The notes beneath the pieces are model-generated. The model searched no databases. It was not told the origin of the DNA and was given only the letters and a program-made list of their open reading frames with translations. Below are positions 7,464 to 40,004 of a stretch of DNA of 64,000 nucleotides, piece by piece. Each line of letters begins with the position of its first letter. Position 1 is the stretch's first letter. The stretch is from an uncultured bacterium (lineage in GTDB: Bacteria; Actinomycetota; Acidimicrobiia; Spongiisociales; UBA5794), in NCBI GenBank assembly GCA_963801165.1, contig CAWDDT010000005.1, forward strand, positions 384,001 to 448,000, written 5' to 3'. Position numbers and translations under genes: made by a program.

Positions 7464-7467
7464 TATC

Positions 7468-20281: not shown

Positions 20282-20289
20282 TGTTTCTC

Positions 20290-24444: not shown

Positions 24445-24578
24445 AGCTCCTCCAGAGGGGACAGCTCCCGCGATCATATACAGGGCATCACCGCGAGATG
24501 GCGAGCCGGGTGGGAATCTCGACACGTTCCTCCGATTCTTCGGGGAGGTCCGTAGCATTGGGGGTGGAGGTGTGTGTG

Positions 24579-25667
24579 GTGACACTCGAATCAACCGTTC
24601 CCACCGTCTACTGGCATGAGTTGGACGACGGGCGTGTTCAATGTGACCTGTGCCCGCGGCAGTGCAAGCTCCGCGAAGGCCAGCGTGGCCTGTGCTACGT
24701 GCGGACCCGGGAAGACGACCAGATTGTCCTCACCACCTACGGGCGCTCCAGCGGATTCTGCATCGACCCCATCGAGAAGAAGCCGCTCAACCACTTCCTG
24801 CCCGGCACTCCGGTGCTGTCGTTTGGGACCGCAGGATGCAACCTCGCCTGCCGGTTCTGCCAGAACTGGGACATCTCCAAGTCGAAGGAGTTCGACACCC
24901 TCAGCGACCAGGCTTCACCGGAGCAGATCGCAGCTGCCGCCAAAGCGACCGGGTGCCGGAGCATCGCCTTCACCTACAACGACCCGGTGATCTTCCACGA
25001 GTACGCCATCGACGCCGCAGACGCGGCCAGGGACCAGGGCTTGAAAGCGGTGGCGGTGACGGCCGGGTATGTGATGCCGGATCCGCGCCGCGAGTTCTAC
25101 GAGCACATGGATGCTGCCAACATCGACCTCAAGGCCTTCACCGACGAGTTCTATCACCGTGTCTCCGCCGCCGCCCTCCGCCCCGTTCTCGACACGCTCG
25201 AATATGTCGCCAACGAGACCGACGTCTGGCTGGAGATCACAACGCTCCTCATCCCCGGGTACAACGACTCCATAGAGGAGATCGACGAGATGACCCGTTG
25301 GGTCGTCACCAACCTCGGCCCCGACATACCTCACCATTTCTCCGCTTTCCACCCCGACTTCAAGATGCTCGACGTTCCCCGCACGCCGCCGGCGACATTG
25401 ACCCGGGCTCGCCGGATCGCTCTCGACAACGGCGAGCGCTACGTGTACACCGGGAACGTCCACGACCCGGACGGTCAGACCACCTATTGCCACAACTGTG
25501 GAACCGCCCTTATCGAGCGCGACTGGTACCGGCTCGGCGACTGGCGGCTCGACGGCAACGGTCGCTGCACATCCTGCGGGACCGGATGCGCCGGCGTGTT
25601 CGAGTCGCAGCCGGGAACATGGGGAGCGGCCCGCCGCCCGGTCCGGATCAGCGGCTACAAATCCTGA
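24579..25667 (+). CDS. amrS: AmmeMemoRadiSam system radical SAM enzyme
   Basis: 'CDLCPRQC', 'DPIEKKPLNHF.PG', 'GCNLACRFCQNWDIS', 'YVYTGNV'. Confidence 0.93.
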   Translation: MTLESTVPTVYWHELDDGRVQCDLCPRQCKLREGQRGLCYVRTREDDQIVLTTYGRSSGFCIDPIEKKPLNHFLPGTPVLSFGTAGCNLACRFCQNWDISKSKEFDTLSDQASPEQIAAAAKATGCRSIAFTYNDPVIFHEYAIDAADAARDQGLKAVAVTAGYVMPDPRREFYEHMDAANIDLKAFTDEFYHRVSAAALRPVLDTLEYVANETDVWLEITTLLIPGYNDSIEEIDEMTRWVVTNLGPDIPHHFSAFHPDFKMLDVPRTPPATLTRARRIALDNGERYVYTGNVHDPDGQTTYCHNCGTALIERDWYRLGDWRLDGNGRCTSCGTGCAGVFESQPGTWGAARRPVRISGYKS

Positions 25668-25681
25668 GCCGCATTCCGGCT

Positions 25682-26464
25682 TCAGAGTCCCAGGACGAAC
25701 GCTCCGTATCCCACCACCCGATCGGATGGCCCGGCCGTGTCGCCCGAGTTTCTCAGGTCGAGCATCGTCACCCGATAGCCGAGACGGGTCGCCAGCTCCA
25801 ATGCAATCTGGATGGCCGTGCGCCCGCAGGCGGACTCATGCTCGAGCGCGGCCCAGTCGAGCCGGACGATGGCCGCGGCGGTGGCCGCGTCGAGGCGACG
25901 TGCAATCTTCGAGTCGTAGTAGTGCGAGAGATCCGAAGAGACGAGCAGCAATGTCTTGTCATCGAGAAGGGGGGCAACGACGTCGGCTCCCTGCCTGGGT
26001 GTTATCGCTCCGGTCAGCAGCGGCACCACCGAAACGCCCGGTGTCACCACCTGGAGGAACGGGAGCTGCACCTCGAGCGAATGCTCGCGCCTATGGGCCT
26101 CCGGGTCCTCGGTGACCAGCGAATCCGCCAACAGTCCGCGGCATGCATCCGCGTCGATCGAGACGATCCCGAGCGGTGTCTCCATACCGTCCGCCCCGGG
26201 CAACGTCATCCCGGCAAAAGGCACGTAGTGTGCCGGACCGAGCAGCACCACCCTCTCGACCGGCACGTTCTCGAGACACCGGTATGCGCGAGCCGCCACC
26301 GGTCCGGAGTAGATGTATCCCGCATGGGGAACAATCAGCATGCGCACCGACGAGTCGGGTTGCGGCACCCCTGCCGCGTCGAGGTGCGCCCGGACGTCGC
26401 CCTCCAGCCGGACGGGATCGGAGGGATAGAAAGTGCCTGCAACCGCAGCTCGGCGTGTCGACAT
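25682..26464 (-). CDS. amrB: AmmeMemoRadiSam system protein B (MEMO1 family)
   Basis: 'AVAGTFYP', 'PHAGYIYSG', 'EHSLEVQLPFLQ', 'SSDLSHY', 'VVGY'. Confidence 0.95.
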   Translation of the reverse strand: MSTRRAAVAGTFYPSDPVRLEGDVRAHLDAAGVPQPDSSVRMLIVPHAGYIYSGPVAARAYRCLENVPVERVVLLGPAHYVPFAGMTLPGADGMETPLGIVSIDADACRGLLADSLVTEDPEAHRREHSLEVQLPFLQVVTPGVSVVPLLTGAITPRQGADVVAPLLDDKTLLLVSSDLSHYYDSKIARRLDAATAAAIVRLDWAALEHESACGRTAIQIALELATRLGYRVTMLDLRNSGDTAGPSDRVVGYGAFVLGL

Positions 26465-26545
26465 ACGACTCCTTCTTCTCAAGGGTACGCTCGCCCGTCA
26501 CCACCGACAAGGTGTGGTCAACCGAGCGACTGACCCCTACACCGC

Positions 26546-27804: not shown

Positions 27805-28371
27805 ATGGCTGTGGAATCGACAATGCTCGCGCTGGGAACCGCGGCGCCCGATTTCGATCTCGTTGACACAGTGAGTGGCCAACCCGTCAGCTTGGCCGAC
27901 CATTCTTCCAAGGCGCTCGTGGTCATGTTCATCTGCAACCACTGCCCATACGTCAAGCACGTCCAACAAGGTCTGGTCGAGTTCGGTCGTGACTATGCGG
28001 ACGCCGATGTGGACATCGTGGCCATAAGCTCCAACGACGCCACTGCCTACCCGGACGACGCCCCCAACGAGCTAGCCGCAACCGCCAGGAGGTTGGGCTA
28101 CCCCTTCCCGGTCCTCTACGACGAGACGCAAGAGGTGGCCAGGGCGTACACCGCGGCGTGCACACCGGACTTCTTTGTCTTTGGTCCCGAGCGCACCCTC
28201 GTATATCGCGGTCGCTTCGACGAATCGCGCCCCGACTCCGGCCTCCCGGTTACGGGCGCCGACCTACGAGCTGCGGTCGATTCCGTAATCGCTGGTGAGT
28301 CGGTCGCCGATATGCAGTACCCCTCGATGGGATGCAGCATCAAGTGGGCCCCGGGAAACGAGCCGTACTGA
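27805..28371 (+). CDS. Thioredoxin/AhpC-TSA (redoxin) family protein
   Basis: 'MFICNHCPYV', 'AACTPDFF', 'SMGCSIKW'. Confidence 0.92.
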   Translation: MAVESTMLALGTAAPDFDLVDTVSGQPVSLADHSSKALVVMFICNHCPYVKHVQQGLVEFGRDYADADVDIVAISSNDATAYPDDAPNELAATARRLGYPFPVLYDETQEVARAYTAACTPDFFVFGPERTLVYRGRFDESRPDSGLPVTGADLRAAVDSVIAGESVADMQYPSMGCSIKWAPGNEPY

Positions 28372-28392: not shown

Positions 28393-29388
28393 TCAGCCGG
28401 TGACCTGCTCCATCCACGCGACCAGCTCGTCGGGAAGGTCGATACCCTCGGCCGCAGAGCGCTCTCTGTTGCCGAGACGGCGGCTGCCGGGAATCCGGGT
28501 GCCCGGCTGGTCGGTGACGGCATCGAGCAGCACCTCGAGCCGCTCCGTATAGCTGCCTCCACTGAGCGGACCGGGATCGAAGCCCAATAGGAACTGCCCT
28601 ACCCGCGGCGGCTCACCTTCGGTCTCGAAGAACGAGGACGCCTCGAAACCAAAGTTGGCGCCTGTCATTGCAGCCGCCATGATCTCGACGGCCAGCACCA
28701 GGGCCGCACCCTTAGCGTCGCCGAGTGGCAGCATCGAGCCGCCGAGCGCGGCCGCAGCGTCGGTGGTTGGCTTGCCGGCGGCGTCCAATGCCCACCCCTC
28801 AGGTATCTCCCGTCCCGTGTCGGCGGCGAGCTTCACCTTGCCCCGGGCTTGTTTCGAGAGTGACAGATCGACAACCACTGGAGGAGCAGCCGTCCGCGGG
28901 AATCCGAATGCCATCGGGTTGGTGCCAAAAAGCGGTCGGAACCCACCCCACGGAGCAATGCCCGCAGGCGAGTTTCCGACCACCATCCCGACAGCGCCCC
29001 TCTCGGCGAGCCGCTCCACGTGGTGACCCGCTACGCCGAAGTGATGCGAGTTGGTGATGGCGATCCCGGCGATGGGCGTCACGGCCAGCATGTCGACCAT
29101 CGTCTCGATCGCCAGATCGAGGGCCGGGAAGGCAAACCCCTCCCGGGCGTCGATGCGGGCCGCCGAAGGGCCCAGTATCTCGAGCTCGGGGACGGCGCTA
29201 CCGGCGACCTTGCCCGTCGTCACCTGACCGGAGTATGCCCGGAGCCGTGCCAGTCCGTGTGAGTGGAGACCGTCGGCGTCGGCCCGAACCAGCGCCAGGG
29301 CCACCGACCCTGCCGCCGGCTCGGATGTGCCTGCGTTCACCAGCACCCGCCTGGCGAGCTCCACGAGCTGTTCCGCAGTGCGGATCAT
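28393..29388 (-). CDS. comC: Ldh_2 family dehydrogenase, probable (R)-sulfolactate dehydrogenase
   Basis: 'SHGL', 'NSHHFG', 'FGTNPMAF', 'GWALD..G.PTTD', 'KG..L'; adjacent to suyAB. Confidence 0.75.
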   Translation of the reverse strand: MIRTAEQLVELARRVLVNAGTSEPAAGSVALALVRADADGLHSHGLARLRAYSGQVTTGKVAGSAVPELEILGPSAARIDAREGFAFPALDLAIETMVDMLAVTPIAGIAITNSHHFGVAGHHVERLAERGAVGMVVGNSPAGIAPWGGFRPLFGTNPMAFGFPRTAAPPVVVDLSLSKQARGKVKLAADTGREIPEGWALDAAGKPTTDAAAALGGSMLPLGDAKGAALVLAVEIMAAAMTGANFGFEASSFFETEGEPPRVGQFLLGFDPGPLSGGSYTERLEVLLDAVTDQPGTRIPGSRRLGNRERSAAEGIDLPDELVAWMEQVTG

Positions 29389-29397
29389 CGCCGTCTC

Positions 29398-30561
29398 CTA
29401 TGCAGACTGGTACAGCTTGGTGAAGATGAATTCACGATGGCCGAGCGTCTCGGCTGCAGTGTTCCGTCCGTTCGCCGTACGCACGACCATGTCGATCAGC
29501 GCGTCACCGGCCTCATCGAGAGTCATCTCGCCGCTGAGCAGACCAGAGACGTCGAGGTCGACGTGGTCGGCCATGAGCCGGGCGGTACGGGGATTCGCCG
29601 TCACCTTGATCACGGGCATTACCGGGTTGCCGATGATGTTGCCCTGACCCGTGGTGAAGATATGAAGCGCAAACCCGGCCGCAGCCTGAAGCGTGTTGCA
29701 CTCGGCGGCTGCAGACGACGTGTCCATGAAGTACAGCCCCGGCCCCTTGGTCGGGGGCTGGGCCGGTACCAGCACATCGATGTACCTGGTGGCCTTCCCG
29801 ATCTTCTGCAGGTTGCCGAACGCCTTCTCCTCGATCGTGGTCAGACCACCTTCGATGTTGCCTGCGGTCGGCTGGCTCTCCGACAGATCGCTCGTCTTGT
29901 GTTGGTTGATCATGTCGTTGTAGGCGTTCCAGGTATCCAGGAACTTCTGCCGTACCTCGGGAGTGGCCGCCCGTTCGGCGCACACCATCTCGGCGCCGGT
30001 CAGCTCGGAGGTCTCCCCAAAGCAGAGGTATTGGCCCTCAGGCTCGAGTTTGTCCATCAGGTTGCCGACGGTCGGGTTGCTGGCGAGACCGGAGGTCGTG
30101 TCCGACTCACCGCATTTGGCGGCGATCCACAACTCGCTCAGTGGTACCTCTTCGCGCTGAAGCTCGGTCGCGTACTGAACGAACTCCTGCGCCTTGCGGC
30201 CGGCCATTGCCGCGGTCTCGAGATCGCCATGCCGCTCGATGGAAAACCCGGCGACCGGTTTCCCGGTGGCGGCGATGCCGTCGACTACCCGCTGGGTCCA
30301 CTTGGGCTCGATCCCGATGACGATGGCGGCAGCGACGTTCGGGTTGGACCCGGTACCGATGAGCGTGTCGAAGGTCAGTTCGAGGTCGGGGCCGAACTGG
30401 AGACGGCCGTAGGCATGGGGCAGGGCGATGGTACCGACGATGTTGTTGGCGACTTTCTCTGCGCACACGTTCGAGATGTCATCGACCGGGAGAATGATCA
30501 CGTGGTTGCGGATGCCGACGCGGCCGTTCTTGCGCCGGTAGGCGTTGATGGTTCGAGTCAT
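29398..30561 (-). CDS. suyB: (2R)-sulfolactate sulfo-lyase beta subunit (UxaA family)
   Basis: '[21 protein letters not shown]', '[12 protein letters not shown]', '[10 protein letters not shown]', '[14 protein letters not shown]' resemble SuyB. Confidence 0.85.
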
Positions 30562-30572
30562 CGTTTCCTCCT

Positions 30573-30857
30573 TCACCACTTCTTGGTCTTGACGTTATGG
30601 ATGTGAACGTGATGGCCGGTGGAAATGTCGTCGGTCACCAACCCGATGTCGTACCCGTACTTGATCAGGGTGTCGCCCCTGGCGAGATCGACGAGCGCGA
30701 TCTTGTGACCGAGCGGGATCGGCTCCTGCGCCTTCATCGACCTGCTCTCGTTTGTGTCCATGACCCAGACGGTCAGGTCCTGGCCCGTCTCGATCCCTTC
30801 AACAACAGCGACTCCGACCGAGTCGGAACTGTCGTGGATGACTATGTCCGGTTTCAT
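30573..30857 (-). CDS. suyA: (2R)-sulfolactate sulfo-lyase alpha subunit (SAF domain)
   Basis: '[13 protein letters not shown]', 'IPLGHKIAL', 'IKYG.DIG', '[12 protein letters not shown]'; GGAGG RBS. Confidence 0.85.
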
Positions 30858-30875
30858 TGTTGCTGCACCTCCGGT

Positions 30876-30909
30876 AGGCGGTTTGCCAGGCGGTTTGCCA
30901 GGCGGTTTG
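30876..30909. repeat. 12-bp tandem repeat AGGCGGTTTGCC, about 3 copies, in the suyA leader
   Basis: Read directly. Confidence 0.8.
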
Positions 30910-30918
30910 TTGTGCGTT

Positions 30919-30931
30919 GGTACCGGTTCCA
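30919..30931. promoter_or_regulatory. Putative operator TGGAACCGGTACC (minus strand) upstream of suyA
   Basis: 12 of 13 bases match the palindrome at 36176-36188. Confidence 0.5.
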
Positions 30932-30973
30932 TTGGCACACGCCGCCGACTGTAGCAGGGTGTGCCGAACGTTT

Positions 30974-32053
30974 TCAGGACATGTCCTCGCCGAGGACCTC
31001 CGTCATCATCACAGGGCGACCCTCGTCTATTGACAGGTGGGCCGCCTGCCCGACCGCGACCGCCAGCAGCCCGTCTTCGAGCGTGACAGAAGCCGGCGTC
31101 CCGGTGCGGATCGCGGTGGCGAAGTCGAGATGCTCCAGATAGGACGCACCCTCGTGGAGACCGCGGTAGGCGACGTGATCCTCGGACACGGCGACCTCCC
31201 TGACAGAGCGCTCTGCGCGTCTCCCGACCCGCATCACGGCATCGGGGACGAACGACTCCACCTTGCCGACGTCGCCGGTCACCGCAAGCTCCTGCTCGTT
31301 GCGTGACCCCTCGGCGAACATGCACAGGTCGAGCAGCGCCCTGATGCCGTTCTCGAAGTCGACGATGACAAAGGCGTTGTCGAGCAGATCCGGGGTCTCA
31401 CCGTTGTACCGCTCCTGGAGATGGTTGACGTCCTGGGCACCCGAGCCGTACACCCGGACCGGGCGCGACTCGGCAATGAGGGTCATCAGGTCGAAGAAGT
31501 GGCAACACTTCTCTACGAGAGTCCCGCCGGTGTTGCGGTTGAACCTGTTCCAATCCCCCACTTTGACCAGGAAGGGGAACCGGTGTTCGCGGATGGCGAT
31601 CATCTTGATGTTGCCGACCGCCCCGGCACGCACCTGCTTGATCAGCGCCTGGATCGGCGGCTTGTATCGATACTCGAGCCCCATCCAGATGATGCCCTTG
31701 TGCCCCTCAGCGGCCTTCAGGATGCGCCGGCATTCGGCAACTGTTGTCCCGAGCGGCTTCTCCACCATCACGTGGACGTCGGTGGCGAGGATGTCCTCCA
31801 TGATGTCGGCGTGTGTGTGATTCGGTGATACGAGAACCACCGCATCACACACACCGGCCGCCAGAAGATCCCGATGAGACTCGAAGACCATGTTGTCCGC
31901 GATGTCCGCGGTGTTCTGACCGAACTTGCGCGACCGGGGATCCGGGTCCGAGATCGCCACGACACTGGCCCCATCGATTGCATTGACGTTGTTTATGTGC
32001 TCGAGGCCCATCATCCCCGTGCCAATCACGCCGTAGCGGATCTTGTCCGTCAT
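30974..32053 (-). CDS. sqgA: NAD+-dependent sulfoquinovosidase (GH188-type, Gfo/Idh/MocA fold)
   Basis: 'GLEYRY.PP', 'IREHRFPFLVKVGDWNRFNRNTGGTLVEKCCHFFDLM', 'LDLCMFAEGS', 'H.GASYLEH'; sulfonate-gene context. Confidence 0.8.
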   Translation of the reverse strand: MTDKIRYGVIGTGMMGLEHINNVNAIDGASVVAISDPDPRSRKFGQNTADIADNMVFESHRDLLAAGVCDAVVLVSPNHTHADIMEDILATDVHVMVEKPLGTTVAECRRILKAAEGHKGIIWMGLEYRYKPPIQALIKQVRAGAVGNIKMIAIREHRFPFLVKVGDWNRFNRNTGGTLVEKCCHFFDLMTLIAESRPVRVYGSGAQDVNHLQERYNGETPDLLDNAFVIVDFENGIRALLDLCMFAEGSRNEQELAVTGDVGKVESFVPDAVMRVGRRAERSVREVAVSEDHVAYRGLHEGASYLEHLDFATAIRTGTPASVTLEDGLLAVAVGQAAHLSIDEGRPVMMTEVLGEDMS

Positions 32054-32082
32054 CACTGTCTCCTTGTGCTCGGCCCGAGCAC

Positions 32083-33105
32083 CTAGTCAGGAATGCCGAG
32101 ATACTTGTTGGTCGTCGCCACGGCCTCGGCACCGGTGGCGTGCATTTCCATCGCGGCGCGGACCGCGTCGATCGTCTCGGGGATCGTCACCGACTCCTGT
32201 GGGATGTTGATCCCCCACACGACGTCATCGCCGGAGAGACCCACCATCTCTTCCCACAAGCCGATCTCATACATATCGGCCCGTGGGTACTCCATGTACC
32301 GCGCCCACTGGAACAGCGAGGCGTTCGAGTTGAAGCCGTCGGCGATCCGGACGACCTTGATGCGCGGGTAGGCCTTGAACGCTTCGAGAGCTCGGTCTAC
32401 CGAGATCTTCGCCTTCGGCGTCGCACACAAAGTGATGATGTGTCCGTGGGTGACCGGGGTGTGGATCAAGAGGCCGGTGGCGTCGACACCCTCCATGATG
32501 TTCGACAGGTCGACGGCCTGGTGGTTGGGGATCGGCTCCACCTGGAGCACGTTGGTGAGACCACGGTGCGTATCGCCCGGGTCGGCGACACGGCGGATGA
32601 TCGTGATGAATACCTTCTCGACCCCCACAGCCTTGTGGATGGCGTCGACGGCGCGGATCAAGCCGGTGGTGTTACACGAGGTCAGCTTGAGGTAGTCCTT
32701 ACCGAGACCCTTCTCGTAGTTGACGGTTCCGTGGAAGAACACATCTGCGACAGATCCTGCTTCGCCGCCCTGGAAGACGGCCTTGACGCCCGCGGCGACA
32801 TACTTCTCCTTGTTTTTCGCACCGATCCCGCCGGGGGCGGCGTCGAGCATCACATCGACCTCACCGAGGAGATCGTCGAAGTTCCCCGAGACCGGGATAC
32901 CCGCTGCTTCCAGCGCCTTTTCGGCACCGTCCATCGCGGTGAACAGCTTGTAGGGCATACCGCGCGCCGCGAGCGCACGCACCGGCAGCGTTGGAGCGAC
33001 ATCGGCCACACCGACCAACTCCATGTCCTCTTGCCGGGCAACGCCGGCGGCGAGCCGGTTGCCGATCACTCCATACCCGGCAACGCCGACCTTCACCTTG
33101 CTCAT
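32083..33105 (-). CDS. Archaeal-type (type II) phosphorylating GAPDH homolog
   Basis: 'GYGVIG.R.A', 'FQGGE', catalytic 'SCNTTGL', 'IRR.ADP', 'QES..IPE.IDAVRA'. Confidence 0.9.
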   Translation of the reverse strand: MSKVKVGVAGYGVIGNRLAAGVARQEDMELVGVADVAPTLPVRALAARGMPYKLFTAMDGAEKALEAAGIPVSGNFDDLLGEVDVMLDAAPGGIGAKNKEKYVAAGVKAVFQGGEAGSVADVFFHGTVNYEKGLGKDYLKLTSCNTTGLIRAVDAIHKAVGVEKVFITIIRRVADPGDTHRGLTNVLQVEPIPNHQAVDLSNIMEGVDATGLLIHTPVTHGHIITLCATPKAKISVDRALEAFKAYPRIKVVRIADGFNSNASLFQWARYMEYPRADMYEIGLWEEMVGLSGDDVVWGINIPQESVTIPETIDAVRAAMEMHATGAEAVATTNKYLGIPD

Positions 33106-33118
33106 TGCTGTCTCCTCT

Positions 33119-34531
33119 CTATAGATCGATAACGGGGATACCCCAGCGAGCCGCCAGGGCTTCTAGCTCCTCGCGATAGTCGCCGTACACGATTCCGAAG
33201 TGGTGTTCCAGGCCTTCTCTGGCGATGGTCGCGACGATCTCGGGTGCGGGCACGTCGAACTCGACAACGCCTGCAGTTCCCGAGAATGCAAGCGGTTCTT
33301 CGAGCATCGTACCGCCCCCTATGACCAGCGACTGCATCCCTCCTGCCTGGCTCAGCCGGCAGATCGTCACCCTGCCGGGACGCAGGGCGAACTCATTGAG
33401 CAGGGGCAGCTTCCGGTTCGAGTGAATCGTGCCGACCGCGGAACCGTCGTCAGGCGCCATGTGCATCGGGGCGAGCCCGCAGTGCCACATCACACCCGTC
33501 CTGCCCACGATGTCCATCTCCACCAGATCTGCGACAAAGGCAGGCTCGCCTGCGATGTACTGGAGCAACAGAGCAGTTACGTTTCCATAGACGTCGGCCT
33601 CGCAGGTTCCCGGCGTCCCATCGTCGATGAGCATGCTCTGTGGCGAGCAGGCGGCGCCGCCGAACTCGGTGAAGCACTCAGGCCAGCATCTCGTGGCGAC
33701 ACCGGCCCAGGACCGCTCGTCGATCATCTTCTTCAGCCCGCCGTAGAGGCTCAGCGACCTGCCGAGCGACATCTGGTCGAGGCCGTCGAGATCGCCGAGC
33801 GAGGATTCGGCGCGCCTCCTGGTCGCCGCGATGGTCTCGGCAGGTGTTGCGGCCGCCGCGGCGAACATGTCGGCGAGCTGGCTGCGTTCCACCGTCACCC
33901 CGGTCACCGCGGCAAGCGTCCCCGCGTCGTAGCCGCAGGGGTCGAAGCCGGTTGGCCGATCACCGATGACCCCGATCGTCGTCTCCGCCAGACGGGCGGC
34001 AACACCCGCCGCGGTTGTGGCGGCCGCTGCTGTCGTCTCCCGCGCCGGTCTTCTGCGGCTGGCTTCCTGCGTGATGCCCCGGGAGAGAATCTGCTCGATG
34101 TCGGCAACGGCGCCGGGATCGTCTGCGGCGCGGTGAACGTAGGCGAAGCTGCTCGCCGCCCGCACGAGAGCGAACGCGGCCAGGTTCAACCCGCAGAACG
34201 AGTTGAGCCTCAGCCTCCCTCCGGTCCTGGCCTCGGGGAAAGACCAGATGATGATCGGCGTCTCGAACCTCGCCCCGATTGCCTCGGTCATCGACGAGTC
34301 GGTGAACGAAACCTGGAGCAGCAGCAACGCATCGAGGTCGCCGTCGCTGAATTGCTCTAGTGCCAATTCGGTGCTGGCGGCGTCGAAAAGCAGGTCCGTC
34401 GTCCCGATCAACTCGGCATCGAGACCACCCAGGGTCGCCAGCGCCGCGGCCGCTACCTCTTCTGCGTACGGAACGTCGAACGTGGGGCGGGCAAGCGCCA
34501 GCACGCCGAGTCGTCTCCGGGACCGGGTCAT
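33119..34531 (-). CDS. Sulfoquinovose isomerase (SqvD/SftI-like, fucose-isomerase fold)
   Basis: 'R.TFD', 'W...E...GGRLRLNS', 'RCWPE.F', 'CEADVYG', 'WHCG.AP', 'EHH..IVYGD'; directly downstream of the SF transaldolase. Confidence 0.78.
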   Translation of the reverse strand: MTRSRRRLGVLALARPTFDVPYAEEVAAAALATLGGLDAELIGTTDLLFDAASTELALEQFSDGDLDALLLLQVSFTDSSMTEAIGARFETPIIIWSFPEARTGGRLRLNSFCGLNLAAFALVRAASSFAYVHRAADDPGAVADIEQILSRGITQEASRRRPARETTAAAATTAAGVAARLAETTIGVIGDRPTGFDPCGYDAGTLAAVTGVTVERSQLADMFAAAAATPAETIAATRRRAESSLGDLDGLDQMSLGRSLSLYGGLKKMIDERSWAGVATRCWPECFTEFGGAACSPQSMLIDDGTPGTCEADVYGNVTALLLQYIAGEPAFVADLVEMDIVGRTGVMWHCGLAPMHMAPDDGSAVGTIHSNRKLPLLNEFALRPGRVTICRLSQAGGMQSLVIGGGTMLEEPLAFSGTAGVVEFDVPAPEIVATIAREGLEHHFGIVYGDYREELEALAARWGIPVIDL

Positions 34532-34535
34532 GGCA

Positions 34536-35198
34536 CTACTCGTAGGGGGTCTCGTCCCAGAATGACTGGAACTTGGCGAGACCCACGTCGGTGTAGGGAT
34601 GGGCGAACGCATCCTGGAAGACAGGCATCCCTGCGGTGACGATGTCGGCACCGACCACGGCGGAGTTGACTATCTGCCTGGCGTTGCGGGCTGCCGCAAC
34701 GATAATCTCGGTCTCGAAGCCGTATACGTCGCGGATCGCCGCCACTTCGTCGACGAAGTGGGTGATCTCCTCACCGTTGCTCTCCTTCCAACCGATGAAC
34801 GGGGAGACGAACGCCGCCCCCATCCGCATCGCCTGGAGGGCTTGGGCCGCTGAGAAGACCAGGGTGAGATTCGAACGGATGCCCTGGTCGGCAAGCTCGA
34901 AGACTGCCTTGAACCCGGGCTCGGTTGCGGGCAGCTTGATGACGAAGTTGGGTGACATGGCGGAGAGCTTCTTCCCCTCGGCGACCATCGTCTTCCAATC
35001 ATCGAGGTGAGGGTTGACCTCCACCGAGATCGGCTTGTCGGTGCCGTCGAAGATGGTGGCGATCTCGTTGATCACCTTGAGGAACGGCTTGCCCGACACC
35101 TGGACGTGACGGGGGTTGGTCGTGACGCCGTCGATATTCCACATCTCGAGGGCGTACTCGATGTCATCGGTCTTGGCACTGTCGAGGAAAAACTTCAC
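34536..35198 (-). CDS. 6-deoxy-6-sulfofructose transaldolase (SqvA/SftT-like)
   Basis: 'MKFFLDSA', 'GVTTNPRH' (Arg where housekeeping TalC has NPS/T), 'SVEVNPHL', 'SPFIGWKE' (Trp in place of the usual GR). Confidence 0.85.
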   Translation of the reverse strand: MKFFLDSAKTDDIEYALEMWNIDGVTTNPRHVQVSGKPFLKVINEIATIFDGTDKPISVEVNPHLDDWKTMVAEGKKLSAMSPNFVIKLPATEPGFKAVFELADQGIRSNLTLVFSAAQALQAMRMGAAFVSPFIGWKESNGEEITHFVDEVAAIRDVYGFETEIIVAAARNARQIVNSAVVGADIVTAGMPVFQDAFAHPYTDVGLAKFQSFWDETPYE

Positions 35199-35207
35199 GT
35201 TTTGCTC

Positions 35208-36140
35208 CTAACTTGTCGTGAGAGTCTGTAGAACGTTGGCAACCGTCACCTCGCTGACGCGGGTGTTCGATTCGGCGGTGAGGCCGGCGATATGGGGGGT
35301 GAGGACGATGTTGTCGAGCCCGGCGAACTTCAGGGCGCCCTCCTCGGTCAGCGGCTCCTCCTCGAATACGTCGAGCGCCGCCCCCGCGAGATGACCCCGG
35401 CGGACGGCATCGGCGAGGGCTACATCGTCGACGACCCCACCCCGGGACGTGTTGATGACCACAGCAGCGGGTGCCAGCCACGCCAGTGCGGCGGCATCGA
35501 GGATGTGCCGGGTATCGGCGGTGAGCGGGACGTGAATGCTCACTGCGTCGCGGCCGGTGAGCAACGACTTCACCGTGTCGTATCTCGTGATCCCCTGCCA
35601 GACAGGGTCGTCGGCAGCTAGGAAGGGGTCGTATGCGGAGACCGTCATGCCGAGGGCGGTCGCCCGCTCGGCGACGAGCCGAGCGATTTCGCCGAAGCCG
35701 ACGAGAGCCAGGCTCTTGCCCGCTGTCTCCCTGCCCTGGAGGTCCGCCCGTGGCCATGATCCACTCAGCATCCGCACCTTCGAGGCATACGCACCCCGAA
35801 ACAACATGAGAAGGGCGGCGATGACGTACTCGGCAACGGCGACGGCGTTGGCTCCGGTGGCCGGATGGACAGCTACCCCACGCCGGGCACAAGCGTCCAG
35901 ATCGATGTTGTCGAGACCGACGCCGAGCCGGCCGACGACACGCAAGCGCGGGGCAGCATCAAGCAGCTCCTCGTCGACCCTGGTTCGGTTGCGAACGATG
36001 ATCGCCTCGGCTTCGGCGAGCTCGGATAGCAACCGGGATCGGTCATCTACGAGGCCGGGATCGAAAGAAAGACTGAACTTTCCCTGCAACGGCTCGAGAG
36101 CATCTCGGCTCATGAATTCGGATACGACTATCTGTGACAT
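35208..36140 (-). CDS. slcC: (S)-sulfolactate dehydrogenase-like D-2-hydroxyacid dehydrogenase
   Basis: 'SEFM', 'LVDDR..L', 'IVRNRTRV', 'GRLGVGLDNID', 'PATGAN..AVAEYV', 'WPR', 'TPHIAG.T.ESN.RVS' resemble SlcC. Confidence 0.75.
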   Translation of the reverse strand: MSQIVVSEFMSRDALEPLQGKFSLSFDPGLVDDRSRLLSELAEAEAIIVRNRTRVDEELLDAAPRLRVVGRLGVGLDNIDLDACARRGVAVHPATGANAVAVAEYVIAALLMLFRGAYASKVRMLSGSWPRADLQGRETAGKSLALVGFGEIARLVAERATALGMTVSAYDPFLAADDPVWQGITRYDTVKSLLTGRDAVSIHVPLTADTRHILDAAALAWLAPAAVVINTSRGGVVDDVALADAVRRGHLAGAALDVFEEEPLTEEGALKFAGLDNIVLTPHIAGLTAESNTRVSEVTVANVLQTLTTS

Positions 36141-36175: not shown

Positions 36176-36188
36176 TGGAACCGGTTCC
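36176..36188. promoter_or_regulatory. Palindromic operator (T)GGAACCGGTTCC in the divergent slcC/ABC promoter region
   Basis: Perfect 12-bp palindrome at 36177-36188. Confidence 0.6.
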
Positions 36189-36323: not shown

Positions 36324-37733
36324 ATGAAGCAACTCAAGTGGTTGCTGCTGGTAGTTGTGTTTGCCATGCTCGCTGCGGCGTGCGGCAACGACAGCTCTGG
36401 GGACACAACGACGGCAGCTCCATCGAATACAACTGCGGCGGCTACAACGACAACTGCAGGCAGTACAGAAACCACAATGGCCGAGACCACGACCACCGCA
36501 GGAATGGTCGATCTCACCGGCACCAAGGTGACGGTGTTTGGTCCCGAAGAGACCGCGGCTGAGGCAGGATCGCTGCAGGCGACCCTCGATCTCTTCGCCG
36601 CACAAACCGGCATAGAGATCGTCTACACCGGTGCTCGCGACGCGTCGGATCAGATCAACGCACAGGTAGCCGGCGGCAACCCGCCGGACATCTTCGTGTT
36701 CCCGCAGCCAGGCAAACTGGCCGACTTCGCCCGGCAGGGTGCTCTGTACCCGCTGCCTGACGATGTGCTGGCAACGGTCGCGGCAAACCAGAGTGATGCG
36801 TGGACTTCGTTCGGCAACGTCGACGGTGTCCAGTACGGCATCCCGACCAAGGCCGACCTCAAGTCGCTCGTCTGGTATCAGCCGGCGCGTTTCGCAGCCG
36901 CCGGCTACACGATCCCGCAGACGTGGGACGAGCTCAAGGCCCTCAGCAACCAGATGATCGCCGACGGCAACACGCCGTGGTGTGTCGGCATCGAGTCCGG
37001 CGCCGCCACCGGGTGGCCGTTCACGGACTGGGTCGAGGATCTGATGCTCCGTTACTACGGGCCCGATGTCTACGACCAGTGGGTCTCGCACGAAGTTCCG
37101 TTCTCGGACCAGCGCGTCATCGACGTGTTCAATCAGATCAGGGACCTCTGGGATACCCCCGGAGCGGTATATGCAGCAGGCGGTTCCATCGCTTCCACCG
37201 CTTTTGGTGACAACGGCGAGCCGCTCGTCAACGGCGACTGCTTCATGCACCGCCAGGCGTCGTTCTTCTCGGCCTTCTTCCCGGATGGGACCCCGGTCGC
37301 CGACGGTAGTGATGGCGCAGTTGACGTCTTCTACTTCCCGGCTGTTGATCCGAACACCCACCCGGTGCTTGGTGCCGGTACGTTGGTCGGTGCGTTCCGC
37401 GACGCTCCCGAGGTGTGGGCAGTGATGAACTACTTCGCCACCTCGGAGTACGGTCAGAACCGGCAGAAGCTGCAGGCACTCTCTAAGGGTGGCGGCGGCG
37501 CACTGTCCGGCTTCCTGTCGCCGGCAACGCAGCAGGACATGAGCGTGTACAACCCGCTCGAGCAGTCGTTCCTCGACATTCTGGCGAGTGCGGATGTTGT
37601 CCGATTCGACGGATCCGACCTGATGCCGACAGCCGTCGGCTCGGGCGCCTTCTGGACCGAAGGAACCAGCTTCATCAATGGCCAGGAGGACGCTGCAGCA
37701 GCAACCGCGGCCATCGATGCGGCGTGGCCGTAA
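36324..37733 (+). CDS. Sugar ABC transporter substrate-binding lipoprotein (AglE/GgtB alpha-glycoside-like)
   Basis: Lipobox LAAAC, Thr-rich linker, 'PQPG', 'KSLVWY', 'WCVGIESGAATGWP.TDWVED', 'RFDGSDLMP'. Confidence 0.9.
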   Translation: MKQLKWLLLVVVFAMLAAACGNDSSGDTTTAAPSNTTAAATTTTAGSTETTMAETTTTAGMVDLTGTKVTVFGPEETAAEAGSLQATLDLFAAQTGIEIVYTGARDASDQINAQVAGGNPPDIFVFPQPGKLADFARQGALYPLPDDVLATVAANQSDAWTSFGNVDGVQYGIPTKADLKSLVWYQPARFAAAGYTIPQTWDELKALSNQMIADGNTPWCVGIESGAATGWPFTDWVEDLMLRYYGPDVYDQWVSHEVPFSDQRVIDVFNQIRDLWDTPGAVYAAGGSIASTAFGDNGEPLVNGDCFMHRQASFFSAFFPDGTPVADGSDGAVDVFYFPAVDPNTHPVLGAGTLVGAFRDAPEVWAVMNYFATSEYGQNRQKLQALSKGGGGALSGFLSPATQQDMSVYNPLEQSFLDILASADVVRFDGSDLMPTAVGSGAFWTEGTSFINGQEDAAAATAAIDAAWP

Positions 37734-37895: not shown

Positions 37896-40004
37896 ATGGA
37901 TCGAGTATTCGCAACATTGATCAGCATCGTGGCCGCGGTCGGCGGTAGCGCGGGGCTGTTCGTCGGAGCCAACAAGCTCTTTGACCTGGCACGAAGCCGG
38001 TACCCGGTCTTTAGCTCCATGATTGGAGCGCTGCTCGGCTTCAGTACCGGGCTCTTGATGTGGGCCAACCGTGTTTCCATAGTGGGCCACGGGCCGCTGG
38101 TCGGTGCCCCGAACCCAACCGGGTTCGTCGCAGCCGTCGACTTCGTGGTGACGCTGGTTGCCAACACCATCGTGCCGACGCTCATCGGTCTGGCCGGGGG
38201 CTGGCTGTACGCCAGGGTGAGCGGGTCGGCCGTCACCTCGACCCAGTACCAGCTCGGTGACCGTGAGGCCGAAGATACGCCCACGACGATGTCGGACAGT
38301 GTCCGGAGGAATCGGTTGCTGGTGGCCATGGCCACCACCGGACTGCTGGGGCTGTGGTTTGCGCTCTTCTACGAGCTGGCCCTGGTGCCGGCGTTCGAGA
38401 TCGGCAAACTCATCATCTGGACGGTTATCGGGCTGGCCATTGCCGCGGCACTCTGGTACACGGGTAAGCGGAGATCGCCGCTCGGAGCCTCACTCGCCCT
38501 CGGCGGAGGCCTCGGTTGGCTCATCGGCACGATGGTCGCCCCCCAACTGGGGGACTTCAAACGGGTGCTGTCTATTGCCGGCATGGATCTAGACGGTGAC
38601 CAGATCTGGACAATTCTGGCGATGGTGATCGGCTTCGTTGCCGTCGGTGCATACATCGGCCTCAAGCCCGTCGCCAGATATCCAACGAGAGACAGAATCG
38701 CCCGGAATTCGCGCGTGTACATATTCCTCGGCCCGGCGCTGCTATTCATCTTCGCCTCGCTGATGCTGCCTGCGTTGCGCACCATCTGGCTGTCGTTCCT
38801 TGGTCCCGACGCGACGCTGCCGCCCACCGAGCGTGCCGCCGGTGGCGTTGACAAGCTTGTCGGGTTGACCAACTACAAGGACGTGTTCAGCGACCCGAAC
38901 AACTGGAATCTGAGCAACTGGTCCGACATCTTTGGCAGTACGCTGTTCTGGGGCGCGATCATCCTGATCGTAGGCGGGGTCATAGCCGGTATCGTGCTGG
39001 GTCGGCAGCGCGGGATGTCGTTCGAGAAATCAGGCGGCTCGCTGGCCCCGATCTCAATCGGTGCGTTCCTGCTGCTCACCTCCCTGTTCGCCGCATTGCG
39101 GGGAACCGTGTTCAACAACCTGTGGTGGGTGGTTGCGGTCACCACCCTGGCAAGCGTGTTCGGTTTGGCAGTCGCCGTGCTGGCGGACAGGGCCAAAATG
39201 GAGAACATCGCCAAATCGCTGATCTTCATGCCGATGGCGATCTCGTTTGTCGGCGCCGGCATCATATGGCGGTTCGTCTACAACGCCAGGGAAGTTCGTC
39301 AGGATCAGACGGGTGTGCTGAATGCCATCTGGGTCGCTCTTGGCCAGCTGTCAAACAGCGGTTGGCCCAAGGTCCTAGCGGCATTGCTGCTTGCAGCCGT
39401 CATCGCAGGCCTGGGTTACATGAGCTGGCGGGGTTATAAGGCAGGGGCGACCGGGCTTTTCGCCGGCTCGCTGGTAACGGCGCTGCCGTTCCTGTACATC
39501 CTGGTACGGCTCCTCACCAACGGTATCGGCGGGTTCTCGGTAGCCGACGACGGCACGATACTCAAAGAGACGATCCTCGTTCGTGAGTCCAGCCCGTACA
39601 ACAACCTGTTCCTGATGGTGGTCCTGATCTGGATCCAGACCGGATTCACGATGGTCATCTTCTCGGCAGCGATCAAGGCGGTCCCCTCTGATCTGATCGA
39701 AGCGTCGAAGGTTGACGGCGCTACCGAGTCGCAGACGTTCTGGCGGGTCACCATCCCGCAGATCGCACCGACGATCGGCGTGGTGATAACAACGCTGATC
39801 GTGTTGGTGATGAAGGTCTTCGACATCGTCAAGGTCATGACAAACGGGAACTTCGACACCCAGGTACTAGCCAACGCCATGTTCACAACCGCCTTCACGA
39901 ACTTCAACTTCGGTAAAGGTTCGGCGCTGGCGGTGCTGATCCTCCTATCGGTGCTCCCGGTGATGATCTTGAACATACGCCGCATGCAGAAGGAGGCCCG
40001 CTGA
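37896..40004 (+). CDS. Sugar ABC transporter permease with long N-terminal membrane extension
   Basis: 'FLGPAL', 'KSLIFMPMAISFVGA', EAA loop 'IEASKVDGA', 'KVFDIV'. Confidence 0.9.
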   Translation: MDRVFATLISIVAAVGGSAGLFVGANKLFDLARSRYPVFSSMIGALLGFSTGLLMWANRVSIVGHGPLVGAPNPTGFVAAVDFVVTLVANTIVPTLIGLAGGWLYARVSGSAVTSTQYQLGDREAEDTPTTMSDSVRRNRLLVAMATTGLLGLWFALFYELALVPAFEIGKLIIWTVIGLAIAAALWYTGKRRSPLGASLALGGGLGWLIGTMVAPQLGDFKRVLSIAGMDLDGDQIWTILAMVIGFVAVGAYIGLKPVARYPTRDRIARNSRVYIFLGPALLFIFASLMLPALRTIWLSFLGPDATLPPTERAAGGVDKLVGLTNYKDVFSDPNNWNLSNWSDIFGSTLFWGAIILIVGGVIAGIVLGRQRGMSFEKSGGSLAPISIGAFLLLTSLFAALRGTVFNNLWWVVAVTTLASVFGLAVAVLADRAKMENIAKSLIFMPMAISFVGAGIIWRFVYNAREVRQDQTGVLNAIWVALGQLSNSGWPKVLAALLLAAVIAGLGYMSWRGYKAGATGLFAGSLVTALPFLYILVRLLTNGIGGFSVADDGTILKETILVRESSPYNNLFLMVVLIWIQTGFTMVIFSAAIKAVPSDLIEASKVDGATESQTFWRVTIPQIAPTIGVVITTLIVLVMKVFDIVKVMTNGNFDTQVLANAMFTTAFTNFNFGKGSALAVLILLSVLPVMILNIRRMQKEAR

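Follow-up and report, generated by a model that had tools for sequence, protein, structure and literature searches.

A putative extended sulfo-transaldolase operon for sulfoquinovose degradation in an uncultured member of the Acidimicrobiia

Sulfoquinovose (SQ), a sulfosugar of plants, is degraded by the sulfo-transaldolase (sulfo-TAL, or sulfo-SFT) pathway in Bacillus aryabhattai SOS1, B. megaterium DSM 1804 and gut Firmicutes, whose core of an isomerase and a sulfofructose (SF) transaldolase is the same as that of the locus described here. The available descriptions of these systems give them a GH31 sulfoquinovosidase and, for sulfolactaldehyde (SLA), either an Aldedh-type dehydrogenase or a reductase, with sulfolactate (SL) or DHPS being exported. 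The lower part of the present pathway is alike by family to that of Chromohalobacter salexigens (SlcC, ComC and SuyAB) and Cupriavidus pinatubonensis (HpsNOP and SuyAB), organisms described as importing C3 sulfonates from other organisms and not as degrading SQ. The two halves have been joined before. Sulfo-TAL clusters with SuyAB in the Thermotogae and Chloroflexi have been termed "extended sulfoglycolysis" (PMC9594981; Wei et al. 2022, citing Liu et al. 2020); by the description in that review, to which our comparison is confined, they resemble the present cluster in linking sulfo-TAL to SuyAB and in using all of the SQ carbon, but belong to other phyla and are bioinformatic predictions only. 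A tandem sulfosugar-SlcC/ComC-SuyAB pathway was demonstrated experimentally for sulfofucose in Paracoccus in 2025 (PMC12421959). As reported there, Paracoccus wurundjeri takes a sugar-derived intermediate along the same course, from (S)-SLA through (S)-SL, sulfopyruvate and (R)-SL to pyruvate and sulfite, and its SLA dehydrogenase is likewise no classical SlaB, the gene being yet to be assigned. It differs in its substrate, its ED-type upper pathway and its position in the Alphaproteobacteria, and the published account includes no transaldolase, SqgA or GAPDH. Given these precedents, the joining of sulfo-TAL with SuyAB is less novel than the initial annotation supposed.

Organisation and conservation of the gene cluster

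Eight co-directional genes occupy positions 28393-36140 on the minus strand of the window (the whole 64,000-nucleotide stretch of DNA analysed), as delimited by an open reading frame listing and a GC3 filter, and the families of all eight were confirmed by Pfam and NCBIfam profiles. Their order, as originally proposed, is SlcC-like dehydrogenase, SF transaldolase, SQ isomerase, type II GAPDH, SqgA, SuyA, SuyB and ComC-like dehydrogenase, with successive gaps in the 5' to 3' direction of 9, 4, 13, 26 and 116 nt, a 7-nt overlap between suyA and suyB, and 9 nt. Terminator-like sites within the operon were no commoner than in shuffled sequence. The route from SQ glycosides to pyruvate and sulfite remains the best reading of these genes, with homology behind each assignment: the operon probably specifies an extended sulfo-TAL pathway by which SQ would be mineralised within one cell, and it appears to encode each step from SQ to pyruvate and sulfite.

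Of 79 loci retrieved with the GAPDH, six (L037, L039, L042, L043, L047 and L064) carry the complete set of eight genes in an identical order, which indicates that the arrangement is not due to chance; in a further nine of the 79 the cluster is interrupted by contig ends or variant in form. The suggested search for synteny across the Acidimicrobiia was thus productive, with the whole cluster found in six other genomes of the class (among them G006, G009, G002 and G024). The description of the cluster as self-contained goes too far. There is no sulfite exporter within the cluster, a TauE orthologue lying 59 kb away in the source genome (it is cluster-adjacent in relatives), and a scan of the flanking genes revealed neither an ABC ATPase nor a regulator gene in or beside it. 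The cluster genes also include no DUF4867 (SqvB/SftX) gene and no aldehyde dehydrogenase gene.

Divergently transcribed on the plus strand are an ABC solute-binding protein (36324-37733; Pfam SBP_bac_1), which is a candidate for the uptake of SQ or SQ-glycerol, and two permeases. Permease 1 (37896-40004; 702 aa) bears a long N-terminal extension, with BPD_transp_1 matched at residues 530-692 only, and permease 2 (40004-40975) also matches BPD_transp_1. In relatives, the binding protein shows conserved synteny with the cluster and full-length identities of 55-59%; permease 1 is conserved there, and permease 2 is 66-72% identical. The 183-bp divergent intergenic region contains a candidate operator, the 12-bp perfect palindrome GGAACCGGTTCC (36177-36188), situated 37 bp upstream of the SlcC-like gene, the first of the operon. 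This palindrome occurs only once in the whole 4.55-Mb genome, and its core, AACCGGTT, is present in exactly one copy per locus in nine related SQ-TAL loci, approximately 20-45 bp upstream of the SlcC-like gene in the seven for which gene coordinates are available.

From SQ glycosides to sulfolactaldehyde

SQ glycosides would enter the cell through the divergent ABC importer, and SQ would then be released by the GH188 NAD+-dependent sulfoquinovosidase SqgA (30974-32056, minus strand; 360 aa), a member of the Gfo/Idh/MocA family. Its best matches among solved structures are 8qc3 (340 bits), 8zn9 (331 bits) and 8qc2 (326 bits), with the next chain at 90 bits, and all eight published catalytic and sulfonate-binding residues of ArSqgA (K107, Y136, R166, L170, K172, E189, H193 and H321) are conserved. 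The predicted SftI/SqvD-like SQ isomerase (33119-34531, minus strand; 470 aa) would convert SQ to SF. Its longest open reading frame starts at 34651 and overlaps the transaldolase gene by 116 nt; the start was set at 34531, as alignments of relatives begin at residues 1-7 of the 470-aa form. The sole NCBIfam match of this protein is NF048012, sulfoquinovose isomerase (E 1e-75), at 255 bits against a cut-off of 700, and it has no relative among solved structures. Its gene accompanies SqgA in sulfo-TAL clusters, with the GAPDH gene between them, and directly adjoins SqgA in the sulfo-EMP-type clusters of relatives.

The SF transaldolase of the SftT/SqvA type (34536-35198, minus strand; 220 aa) is predicted to transfer C1-C3 of SF onto glyceraldehyde 3-phosphate (GAP), yielding fructose 6-phosphate (F6P) and (S)-SLA. 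The closest solved transaldolase is that of B. megaterium, BmSF-TAL (8bc3), at 265.7 bits, whereas no ordinary transaldolase exceeds 156.6 bits, and the motifs NPRH and GWKE are shared with BmSF-TAL, where the Thermotoga maritima enzyme has NPTL and GRMD. A separate long-type transaldolase is encoded on contig C7 of the genome. The alignments to characterised enzymes that the initial annotation called for thus favour its assignments of SqgA and the transaldolase; family membership of these two and of SuyAB is established at the level of sequence, and the assignments of the isomerase and of the SlcC/ComC pair are supported by homology and context.

The sub-threshold score of the isomerase, along with the observation that the solved structures nearest the binding protein are ordinary sugar-binding proteins, none bearing a sulfosugar name, could be taken to mean that the cluster acts on a 6-sulfo sugar other than SQ, or on a sugar acid lacking the sulfonate, and that its likeness to SQ systems reflects family membership only. 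This is highly improbable, given the conservation in SqgA of the sulfonate-binding triad (R166, the L170 backbone and K172) and of the residues in contact with the SQ C4 hydroxyl, the SF-TAL-specific motifs, and the orthologue-level identity of SuyB.

Inversion and desulfonation of sulfolactate

An (S)-SL product would have to be inverted at C2 before desulfonation, and such racemisation is reported to be needed on stereochemical grounds (PMC13436972, PMC12421959). In the SQ pathway proposed here, inversion would proceed via sulfopyruvate through the SlcC-like and ComC-like dehydrogenases, and (R)-SL would be cleaved to pyruvate and sulfite by SuyAB. The SlcC-like protein (35208-36140, minus strand; 310 aa; Pfam 2-Hacid_dh_C, 168 bits) is a PGDH-like D-2-hydroxyacid dehydrogenase that shares 58% identity with a Sinorhizobium mexicanum protein whose gene adjoins SuyAB and an Ldh_2 gene; among the matches listed, 21 of 120 homologues are named (S)-sulfolactate dehydrogenase by JGI. 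The ComC-like protein (28393-29388, minus strand; 331 aa; Pfam Ldh_2, 309.5 bits), a putative (R)-sulfolactate dehydrogenase, is 49% identical to that S. mexicanum Ldh_2 gene product, and the JGI name (2R)-3-sulfolactate dehydrogenase (NADP+) is found on 37 of 120 homologues among the matches listed. It scores 182 against the NCBIfam ComC model, for which the cut-off is 500, and among solved proteins piperideine-2-carboxylate reductase (217 bits) outscores the Methanocaldococcus jannaschii sulfolactate dehydrogenase (122 bits).

The small subunit of the predicted (R)-sulfolactate sulfo-lyase, SuyA (30573-30857, minus strand; 94 aa), was assigned by homology to the small open reading frame that precedes SuyB in Cupriavidus, Paracoccus and Sinorhizobium (46-51% identity). 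The large subunit, SuyB (29398-30579, minus strand; 393 aa; Pfam GD_AH_C, 285 bits), is 65.1% identical to its counterpart in C. pinatubonensis (an hpsN/hpsO-adjacent gene), 67.5% to that of Paracoccus versutus and 70.6% to that of S. mexicanum. Among plasmid matches, it is 60-71% identical to 13 genes, including hpsN/hpsO-adjacent ones, and the next tier reaches at most 42%, a separation that bears out the SuyB assignment. The genes for SuyA, SuyB and the SlcC-like and ComC-like proteins are grouped together in S. mexicanum, a species named as a carrier of SlcC/ComC/SuyAB homologues (PMC12421959, mBio 2025).

Four genomes of 95-99% completeness (G021, G023, G034 and G037) also encode orthologues of the SlcC-like protein (50-55% identity), in sulfo-EMP-type clusters with the layout ABC-HacidDH-PfkB-aldolase-SftI-SqgA, in which the 2-hydroxyacid dehydrogenase is the only redox enzyme. 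SuyB and type II GAPDH were not found in these genomes with the queries used here, and the SlcC-like family may therefore differ in role there. Extended to the present locus, this pattern would suggest two separate functions, one of sulfoglycolysis with export of SL or DHPS and the other of uptake and degradation of external SL, the dehydrogenase acting as an SLA reductase or in some other capacity. We consider such a division unlikely, since all eight genes run in one direction, spaced by no more than 116 nt and with no terminator-like excess, the cluster contains neither a sulfonate exporter nor a second importer, and the dehydrogenase is closer to the SuyAB-linked S. mexicanum protein than to the sulfo-EMP homologues.

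The type II GAPDH and comparison with known systems

In the single-pathway reading, oxidation of SLA to (S)-SL falls to the type II (archaeal-type) GAPDH (32083-33105, minus strand; 340 aa), the proposed SLA dehydrogenase, most likely via a thioester and an acyl phosphate. This step keeps its place in the inferred route, where it depends solely on this enzyme. The protein is the only type II GAPDH of the genome and is present in every complete SQ-TAL cluster. Its score of 375 bits against NF003251 (cut-off 185) and its retention of Methanothermus fervidus S139, C140, N141, R167, R168, H193 and H219, including R167 and R168, the pair of arginines that binds the GAP phosphate, are also compatible with an extra GAP dehydrogenase that serves F6P-derived GAP or NADP(H) balance, with SLA left to an unlinked aldehyde dehydrogenase; four Aldedh-family matches in the genome (E < 1e-30) could provide the latter. 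A PGK paralogue is moreover the usual downstream neighbour of the bacterial family, in a gap-pgk operon-like arrangement, and active-site motifs of SQ-context copies are no different from those of non-SQ copies. We regard this alternative as possible but doubtful. A housekeeping type I gap-pgk pair is already encoded on contig C6, all 71 bacterial members have Gln at the position of M. fervidus His194, and the neighbours of the GAPDH-PGK module (malate racemase, malic enzyme or Iso_dh, and SuyAB) indicate carboxylate or sulfonate analogues in place of GAP. Additionally, a close SlaB-like gene was not found in the genome with a single query, a SuyAB-linked Rhodococcus aldehyde dehydrogenase (best match 35%).

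The PGK paralogue itself also argues against GAP as the substrate. Of the three arginines by which PGK binds the 3-phosphate (PMC7729029), Arg65 is absent from all 44 sequences, which have Asp, Gly or Ser in its place, while His62, Arg122 and Arg170 are retained. The paralogue was found in all five SQ-cluster genomes tested. In 56 of the 79 GAPDH-family loci it forms the context without SQ genes, which weighs against a role of the GAPDH in SLA oxidation. In a tree of the GAPDH family, 11 of 13 SQ-context sequences fall into one group, sister to a GAPDH-PGK group of Ilumatobacteraceae and Acidimicrobiales in which SuyAB and a LarA-type racemase adjoin in six loci; G024 holds both a dedicated GAPDH in its SQ cluster and a second copy in an Iso_dh-GAPDH-PGK context. 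The usual company of an Arg65-less kinase suggests an acyl-phosphate route for SLA oxidation, one that may yield ATP. In the source genome the paralogue lies on contig C7 and not on the contig of the cluster, so that the kinase partner, if the GAPDH is phosphorylating, is likely encoded on another contig; we infer both that the GAPDH acts on SLA and that this reaction is coupled to the kinase. We know of no demonstration so far that a type II GAPDH converts SLA to SL.

The archaeal phosphorylating type II GAPDHs share with this enzyme their fold family, the catalytic Cys, His and Asn, both arginines, His193 and a PGK-family kinase as the usual neighbour. They differ from the bacterial family in the residue at position 194 and in the Arg65 of the partner kinase, and also in context, which is central glycolysis in the archaea, whereas the bacterial genes accompany those for SQ, SuyAB, malate racemase, malic enzyme and split transketolase. 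Compared with the sulfo-TAL systems of the Firmicutes, the present cluster has a GH188 SqgA and a type II GAPDH, lacks an exporter and continues to SuyAB. The features that seem new in this cluster are its lineage, the GH188 gateway and a type II GAPDH apparently replacing SlaB: an archaeal-type GAPDH stands where other bacteria have an ordinary aldehyde dehydrogenase.

The operon, its importer and the predicted upper pathway

Eight consecutive minus-strand genes, running from 36140 to 28393, were recovered by ORF listing combined with a third-position G+C filter in a window of 61-67% G+C. The gene order claimed in the initial annotation, namely SlcC-like, sulfofructose (SF) transaldolase, sulfoquinovose (SQ) isomerase, type II GAPDH, SqgA, SuyA, SuyB and ComC-like, agrees with these ORF calls and with the Pfam and NCBIfam families of the products. 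Successive genes are separated by 9, 4, 13, 26 and 116 nt, a 7-nt overlap and 9 nt. The isomerase gene was taken to begin with the ATG at 34531, since the longest ORF would start at 34651 and overlap the transaldolase gene by 116 nt. A consensus scan of the operon found no terminator-like sites above the level of shuffled sequence. Divergent from gene 1, across 183 bp, lies a plus-strand ABC importer of three genes, encoding a binding protein (36324-37733) and two permeases (37896-40004 and 40004-40975). The intervening region carries GGAACCGGTTCC, a 12-bp palindrome 37 bp upstream of gene 1 that is present in a single copy genome-wide; its 8-bp core occurs once per locus in nine related loci, and at the same place in the seven that have gene coordinates.

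The first permease (37896-40004, plus strand) is 702 aa in length, of which residues 530-692 alone match the permease domain; the N-terminal part is long and membrane-like, and the relatives also carry this long form. SQ-glycerol was considered as the ligand of the binding protein, and the solved structures matched were all ordinary sugar-binding proteins with none named for a sulfosugar, which leaves that ligand without direct support. Genes for a radical SAM protein and a Memo-like protein map close to the operon (24498-26482), at most as candidates for a link with the pathway; a radical SAM gene recurs near GAPDH in two further loci, L044 and L068.

The product of gene 5 (SqgA) has the two-domain Gfo/Idh/MocA fold with a Rossmann NAD site (PF01408, 95 bits; PF02894, 110 bits). 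Among solved structures it matches 8qc3, 8zn9 and 8qc2 at 340, 331 and 326 bits, respectively, and the next chain at 90. The structural account of ArSqgA assigns sugar-hydroxyl contacts to K107, Y136, E189, H193 and H321, and a sulfonate-binding triad to R166, the backbone of L170, and K172 (JACS 2023; PMC10755693). All eight of these catalytic and sulfonate residues are identical in the window's SqgA, as judged by HMMER alignment to 8qc3, in which the chain index is the native number plus 13. Glu163, also named in that account, maps one residue off in the 8qc3 chain, both sequences having a Glu. We assign gene 5 as a GH188 NAD+-dependent sulfoquinovosidase, with hydrolysis of SQ glycosides as its predicted activity.

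Gene 2 encodes a transaldolase of the short (TalC/FSA) TAL_FSA type (PF00923, 138.6 bits) that scores 187 bits against the NCBIfam fsa_talC cut-off of 246. The initial annotation had named clustering with housekeeping TalC as the outcome that would count against an SF transaldolase; gene 2 instead groups with the latter, both by score (265.7 bits to the Bacillus megaterium enzyme, 8bc3, vs 156.6 for the best ordinary transaldolase) and by motif. Its VIKLP lysine, presumably the Schiff-base lysine, aligns with VIKIP of the B. megaterium enzyme and of 1vpx, and the NPRH and GWKE motifs are common to gene 2 and the B. megaterium enzyme only, the T. maritima transaldolase having NPTL and GRMD at these places. 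The one other TAL_FSA gene of the genome, on contig C7, is of the long type and represents the housekeeping transaldolase. For the predicted isomerase of gene 3, the single NCBIfam match is NF048012, sulfoquinovose isomerase SftI (E 1e-75, 255 bits against a cut-off of 700); Pfam Fucose_iso_C reaches 27.3 bits vs a cut-off of 29.3, and no solved relatives were found at E up to 0.001. Across the loci compared, the SftI-like gene stands one gene apart from SqgA in sulfo-TAL clusters and adjoins it in clusters of the PfkB/aldolase (sulfo-EMP) type.

A predicted route from sulfolactate to sulfite

The SuyA-like (94-aa) and SuyB-like (393-aa) ORFs overlap by 7 nt, and the latter combines GD_AH_second and GD_AH_C domains as a member of the UxaA/GarD family. 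Purified SuyAB is composed of a small SuyA and a SuyB of roughly 42 kDa. A tblastn search with SuyB against 72,556 plasmids returned 469 records, 13 of them at 59.8-70.6% identity and the next at 42%. Identity is 65.1% to Cupriavidus pinatubonensis and 67.5% to Paracoccus versutus, in strains that differ from the type strains of the original SuyAB work. In C. pinatubonensis, hpsN, hpsO and genes for an MFS transporter and another dehydrogenase precede the SuyAB pair; in P. versutus the pair adjoins a putative sulfate exporter. On a Rhodococcus koreensis plasmid, SuyAB stands in one row with genes for an aldehyde dehydrogenase, an MFS transporter, another oxidoreductase, a hydroxyacid dehydrogenase and an Ldh protein. 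Sinorhizobium mexicanum groups SuyA (49%) and SuyB (71%) with genes for a 2-hydroxyacid dehydrogenase (58%) and an Ldh_2 protein (49%). The trio of SlcC-like, ComC-like and SuyAB genes thus recurs in both of these organisms, with gene 1 at 58% in S. mexicanum and 39% in R. koreensis; the former is listed among the species with SlcC, ComC, SuyA and SuyB homologues (mBio 2025; PMC12421959). Genes 6 and 7 qualify as orthologues of SuyAB from studied organisms and are predicted to encode an (R)-sulfolactate sulfo-lyase that releases sulfite.

Gene 1 encodes a D-2-hydroxyacid dehydrogenase of the PGDH-like type by Pfam. Among the homologues listed, whose JGI names are automatic annotations that we tallied ourselves, 21 of 120 for gene 1 are called (S)-sulfolactate dehydrogenase and 37 of 120 for gene 8 are called (2R)-3-sulfolactate dehydrogenase (NADP+). 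From the JGI names, we infer that SlcC of C. salexigens belongs to the D-2-hydroxyacid dehydrogenase family. Gene 8 is an Ldh_2 protein (PF02615, 309.5 bits) that comes closest, among solved structures, to a piperideine-2-carboxylate reductase at 217 bits, with the sulfolactate dehydrogenase of M. jannaschii at 122 bits. It scores 182 bits against the cut-off of 500 for the sulfolactate dehydrogenase model NF040650, which we take to have been built on archaeal ComC. The nearest solved relative and the score below cut-off count against gene 8 as ComC; gene context and the JGI names favour it.

With respect to sulfite, the genome has seven matches to the TauE family, five of them above cut-off, and two sulfite-oxidase-family genes elsewhere than in the cluster. 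A TauE gene lies just past the cluster in three related loci (L042, L039 and L044), and its orthologue in the window's genome (54%) is at C5:352145, 59 kb from the cluster. An AhpC/TSA peroxiredoxin gene (27805-28371, plus strand) stands just outside the operon; in L042 and L044 the AhpC/TSA gene adjoins the TauE sulfite exporter beside the cluster, and that TauE gene is absent from the window.

A type II GAPDH as candidate enzyme of the sulfolactaldehyde step

No aldehyde dehydrogenase is present in the cluster, and the SuyAB-linked aldehyde dehydrogenase of Rhodococcus, the one query used, finds its closest match in the genome at 35%. Gene 4, the candidate for sulfolactaldehyde (SLA) oxidation, is a type II GAPDH (NF003251, 375 bits vs a cut-off of 185) with the catalytic Cys140, His219 and Asn141 conserved. 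It is the sole type II GAPDH of the genome, which also has a type I gap-pgk pair on contig C6. Residue roles are described for the M. fervidus enzyme, with phosphate sites formed by S139, N141, R167, H193 and H194 and by R167 and R168 (PMC12041015). The bacterial family keeps S139, C140, N141, R167, R168, H193 and H219 of that enzyme, and its phosphate sites are incomplete: His194 is replaced by Gln in the window's protein and in all 71 bacterial relatives, with the other residues kept. A comparison within the bacterial family gave no active-site motifs that separate the copies inside SQ clusters from the rest.

At 61-92% identity, gene 4 has relatives in Acidimicrobiia, Chloroflexota and many Bacillota. 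A quick maximum-likelihood tree was built from 72 rows, with GAPDH ORFs below 300 aa left out and a midpoint root that serves drawing only. In it, 11 of 13 SQ-context copies fall in one group (SH-aLRT 87). Its sister is an Ilumatobacteraceae/Acidimicrobiales group in which GAPDH is paired with a PGK paralogue (PGK2) and which holds loci with SuyAB and LarA; the joint set of 32 rows has a support of 99. A second GAPDH copy in one SQ-cluster genome (G024) falls in another group of Acidimicrobiia.

The PGK paralogue directly follows GAPDH in 56 of 79 loci (those among L052-L114), none of which belongs to the 15 SQ-context loci. Canonical PGK holds the 3-phosphate with Arg65, Arg122 and Arg170 (PMC7729029). 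In 44 sequences of the paralogue, Asp23, Asn25, His62, Arg122 and Arg170 are kept and position 65 is Asp (32), Gly (6) or Ser (6), never Arg. The copy of the window's genome is at C7:74857-76101 (L119:8858-10102), within an Iso_dh-PGK2-transketolase operon in which Iso_dh and PGK2 are 36 nt apart. G002 shares this arrangement, and G024 has Iso_dh-GAPDH-PGK2 at the corresponding place and a further GAPDH in its SQ cluster. Of the SQ-cluster genomes tested, all five have the PGK paralogue and four have a single type II GAPDH.

In six Acidimicrobiia loci (L056, L058, L059, L060, L062 and L069), GAPDH-PGK2 faces away from SuyAB-like genes (56-63% to those of the window) and a LarA homologue, which are transcribed divergently from it. 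This LarA scores 531 against the NCBIfam cut-off of 462 for nickel-dependent malate racemase LarAH5, and such a nickel-pincer racemase beside SuyAB-like genes is a candidate one-enzyme sulfolactate racemase in place of SlcC and ComC. A LarAH6-type racemase is found in 12 GAPDH loci, mostly of Bacillota; malic enzyme or an Iso_dh-family dehydrogenase, together with a split transketolase, recurs near GAPDH-PGK2, and IolD, IolE and IolG-like genes are added in two loci. Literature searches returned no published function for the GAPDH-PGK2 module, and nothing relevant for archaeal-type GAPDH with PGK, transketolase and LarA.

This gene context argues for GAP analogues as the substrates of the GAPDH family. 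We read them as analogues with a CH2-linked monoanion, with SLA as the substrate in the SQ- and SuyAB-linked clade; in the clade with Iso_dh, racemase and transketolase the substrate is probably 3-hydroxy-4-oxobutanoate and the product D-malate. Sulfolactate and malate differ solely in the CH2-linked anionic group. The operon GAPDH would convert SLA to 3-sulfolactyl phosphate, from which the PGK paralogue on C7 would form sulfolactate and ATP; in the related clade, with its malate racemase, malic enzyme or Iso_dh, and split transketolase, 3-hydroxy-4-oxobutanoate would likewise yield D-malate. Phosphorylating chemistry and ATP formation are suggested by the conserved residues and the kinase neighbour. 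The plain alternative, that gene 4 is an extra GAP dehydrogenase, stands because both GAP-phosphate arginines are kept in it. It is tentatively, and as a possibility rather than an expectation, that we propose the bacterial type II GAPDH and the Arg65-less PGK as a module of substrate-level phosphorylation for GAP analogues with a distal sulfonate or carboxylate, including SLA here and the precursor of D-malate in the related clade. If true, sulfoglycolysis would have its own ATP-yielding lower half, through a reaction without description in any sulfoglycolytic route, and sulfonate metabolism would gain an energy-conserving reaction; our literature search did not find "sulfolactyl phosphate" together with sulfolactaldehyde. 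In our judgement, this step is the part most deserving of experiment.

The window also holds an iol cluster (10828-21255, minus strand) with LacI, IolB (218 vs a cut-off of 205), IolC (300.5 vs 300), two SDRs, IolD (824 vs 715), a Gfo/Idh/MocA protein nearest to levoglucosan dehydrogenase and a second PGDH-like 2-hydroxyacid dehydrogenase. We considered, and set aside, that GAPDH-PGK2 is fed in this genome by inositol catabolism in a transketolase variant; IolC is at its cut-off, and a classical inositol route is therefore possible. Two Ilumatobacteraceae loci (L065 and L109) have a PfkB kinase, type II GAPDH, the PGK paralogue and an SftI-like isomerase (49-50%) in a row, which may represent another sulfosugar route.

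Conservation, variants and precedents

The genome of the window, which itself spans C5:384001-448000, comprises 4.55 Mb in 13 contigs (98% complete, 5.6% contamination), and the named relatives of the window's proteins come from MAGs of Acidimicrobiia and Ilumatobacteraceae. Of 41 genomes searched, counting that of the window, 19 contain the isomerase. G002, G024, G009 and G006 keep all eight genes and the importer in synteny, and in G008, G001, G010 and G004 the set is interrupted by contig ends; among the 79 loci fetched with GAPDH, six have all eight genes and nine more have a cut or variant cluster. The synteny search proposed in the initial annotation places the cluster in at least seven Acidimicrobiia genomes.

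Four more distant genomes (G021, G023, G034 and G037; loci L023, L024, L025 and L026) combine an ABC importer, a 2-hydroxyacid dehydrogenase (50-55%), a PfkB kinase, a DeoC/LacD aldolase, an SftI-like isomerase and SqgA, which is a hybrid sulfo-EMP layout. The PfkB kinase and the aldolase occupy the gap of roughly 2 kb in which a transketolase (sulfo-TK) had been considered. The window's queries found neither SuyB nor type II GAPDH in these genomes (95-99% complete), and their clusters contain no obvious sulfolactaldehyde enzyme. PLP enzymes near some clusters were considered as CuyA-type cysteate lyases, a reading dropped because they pass the NCBIfam cut-off for threonine synthases (320-435 bits vs 303). 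One such threonine-synthase-like enzyme, with a long-type transaldolase, replaces SuyAB and Ldh_2 in a variant SQ cluster, L049 of G008 (6430-8953), and in L044 GAPDH is followed by a PLP enzyme of the same family.

That generic annotation would hide the cluster, as had been suspected, is borne out by its homologues, which are named hydroxyacid dehydrogenase, Ldh family oxidoreductase and UxaA family hydrolase; surveys that score pathways via reference proteins would therefore miss it. In the article texts searched, no link between Acidimicrobiia and SQ was found; one preprint describes organosulfonate potential in Acidimicrobiia with SQ unmentioned. The initial claim of a self-contained SQ-to-sulfite pathway, joining sulfo-TAL to SlcC/ComC and SuyAB in one actinobacterial cluster, holds in substance; its self-containment was overstated, as was its novelty, given the precedents of extended sulfo-TAL and of the Paracoccus tandem. 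Sulfo-TAL is established in Firmicutes, and its clusters are also reported from Actinobacteria, Chloroflexi and others, there in "individual genomes" (PMC7491151). Thermotogae and Chloroflexi are listed as having sulfo-TAL clusters that include SuyAB, under the term extended sulfoglycolysis (2022 review; PMC9594981). In Paracoccus wurundjeri, sulfofucose breakdown is coupled to SlcC/ComC-SuyAB, with the SLA dehydrogenase given as unidentified (PMC12421959). The GAPDH step, if real, would fill this gap of the unknown SLA dehydrogenase as well. Complete catabolism of SQ by a single organism has, according to a July 2026 review, been demonstrated for oxygenolytic routes only (PMC13436972). The cluster described here provides a concrete, testable case of one-cell mineralisation via a carbon-cleaving route, in a lineage that the papers searched do not connect with SQ.
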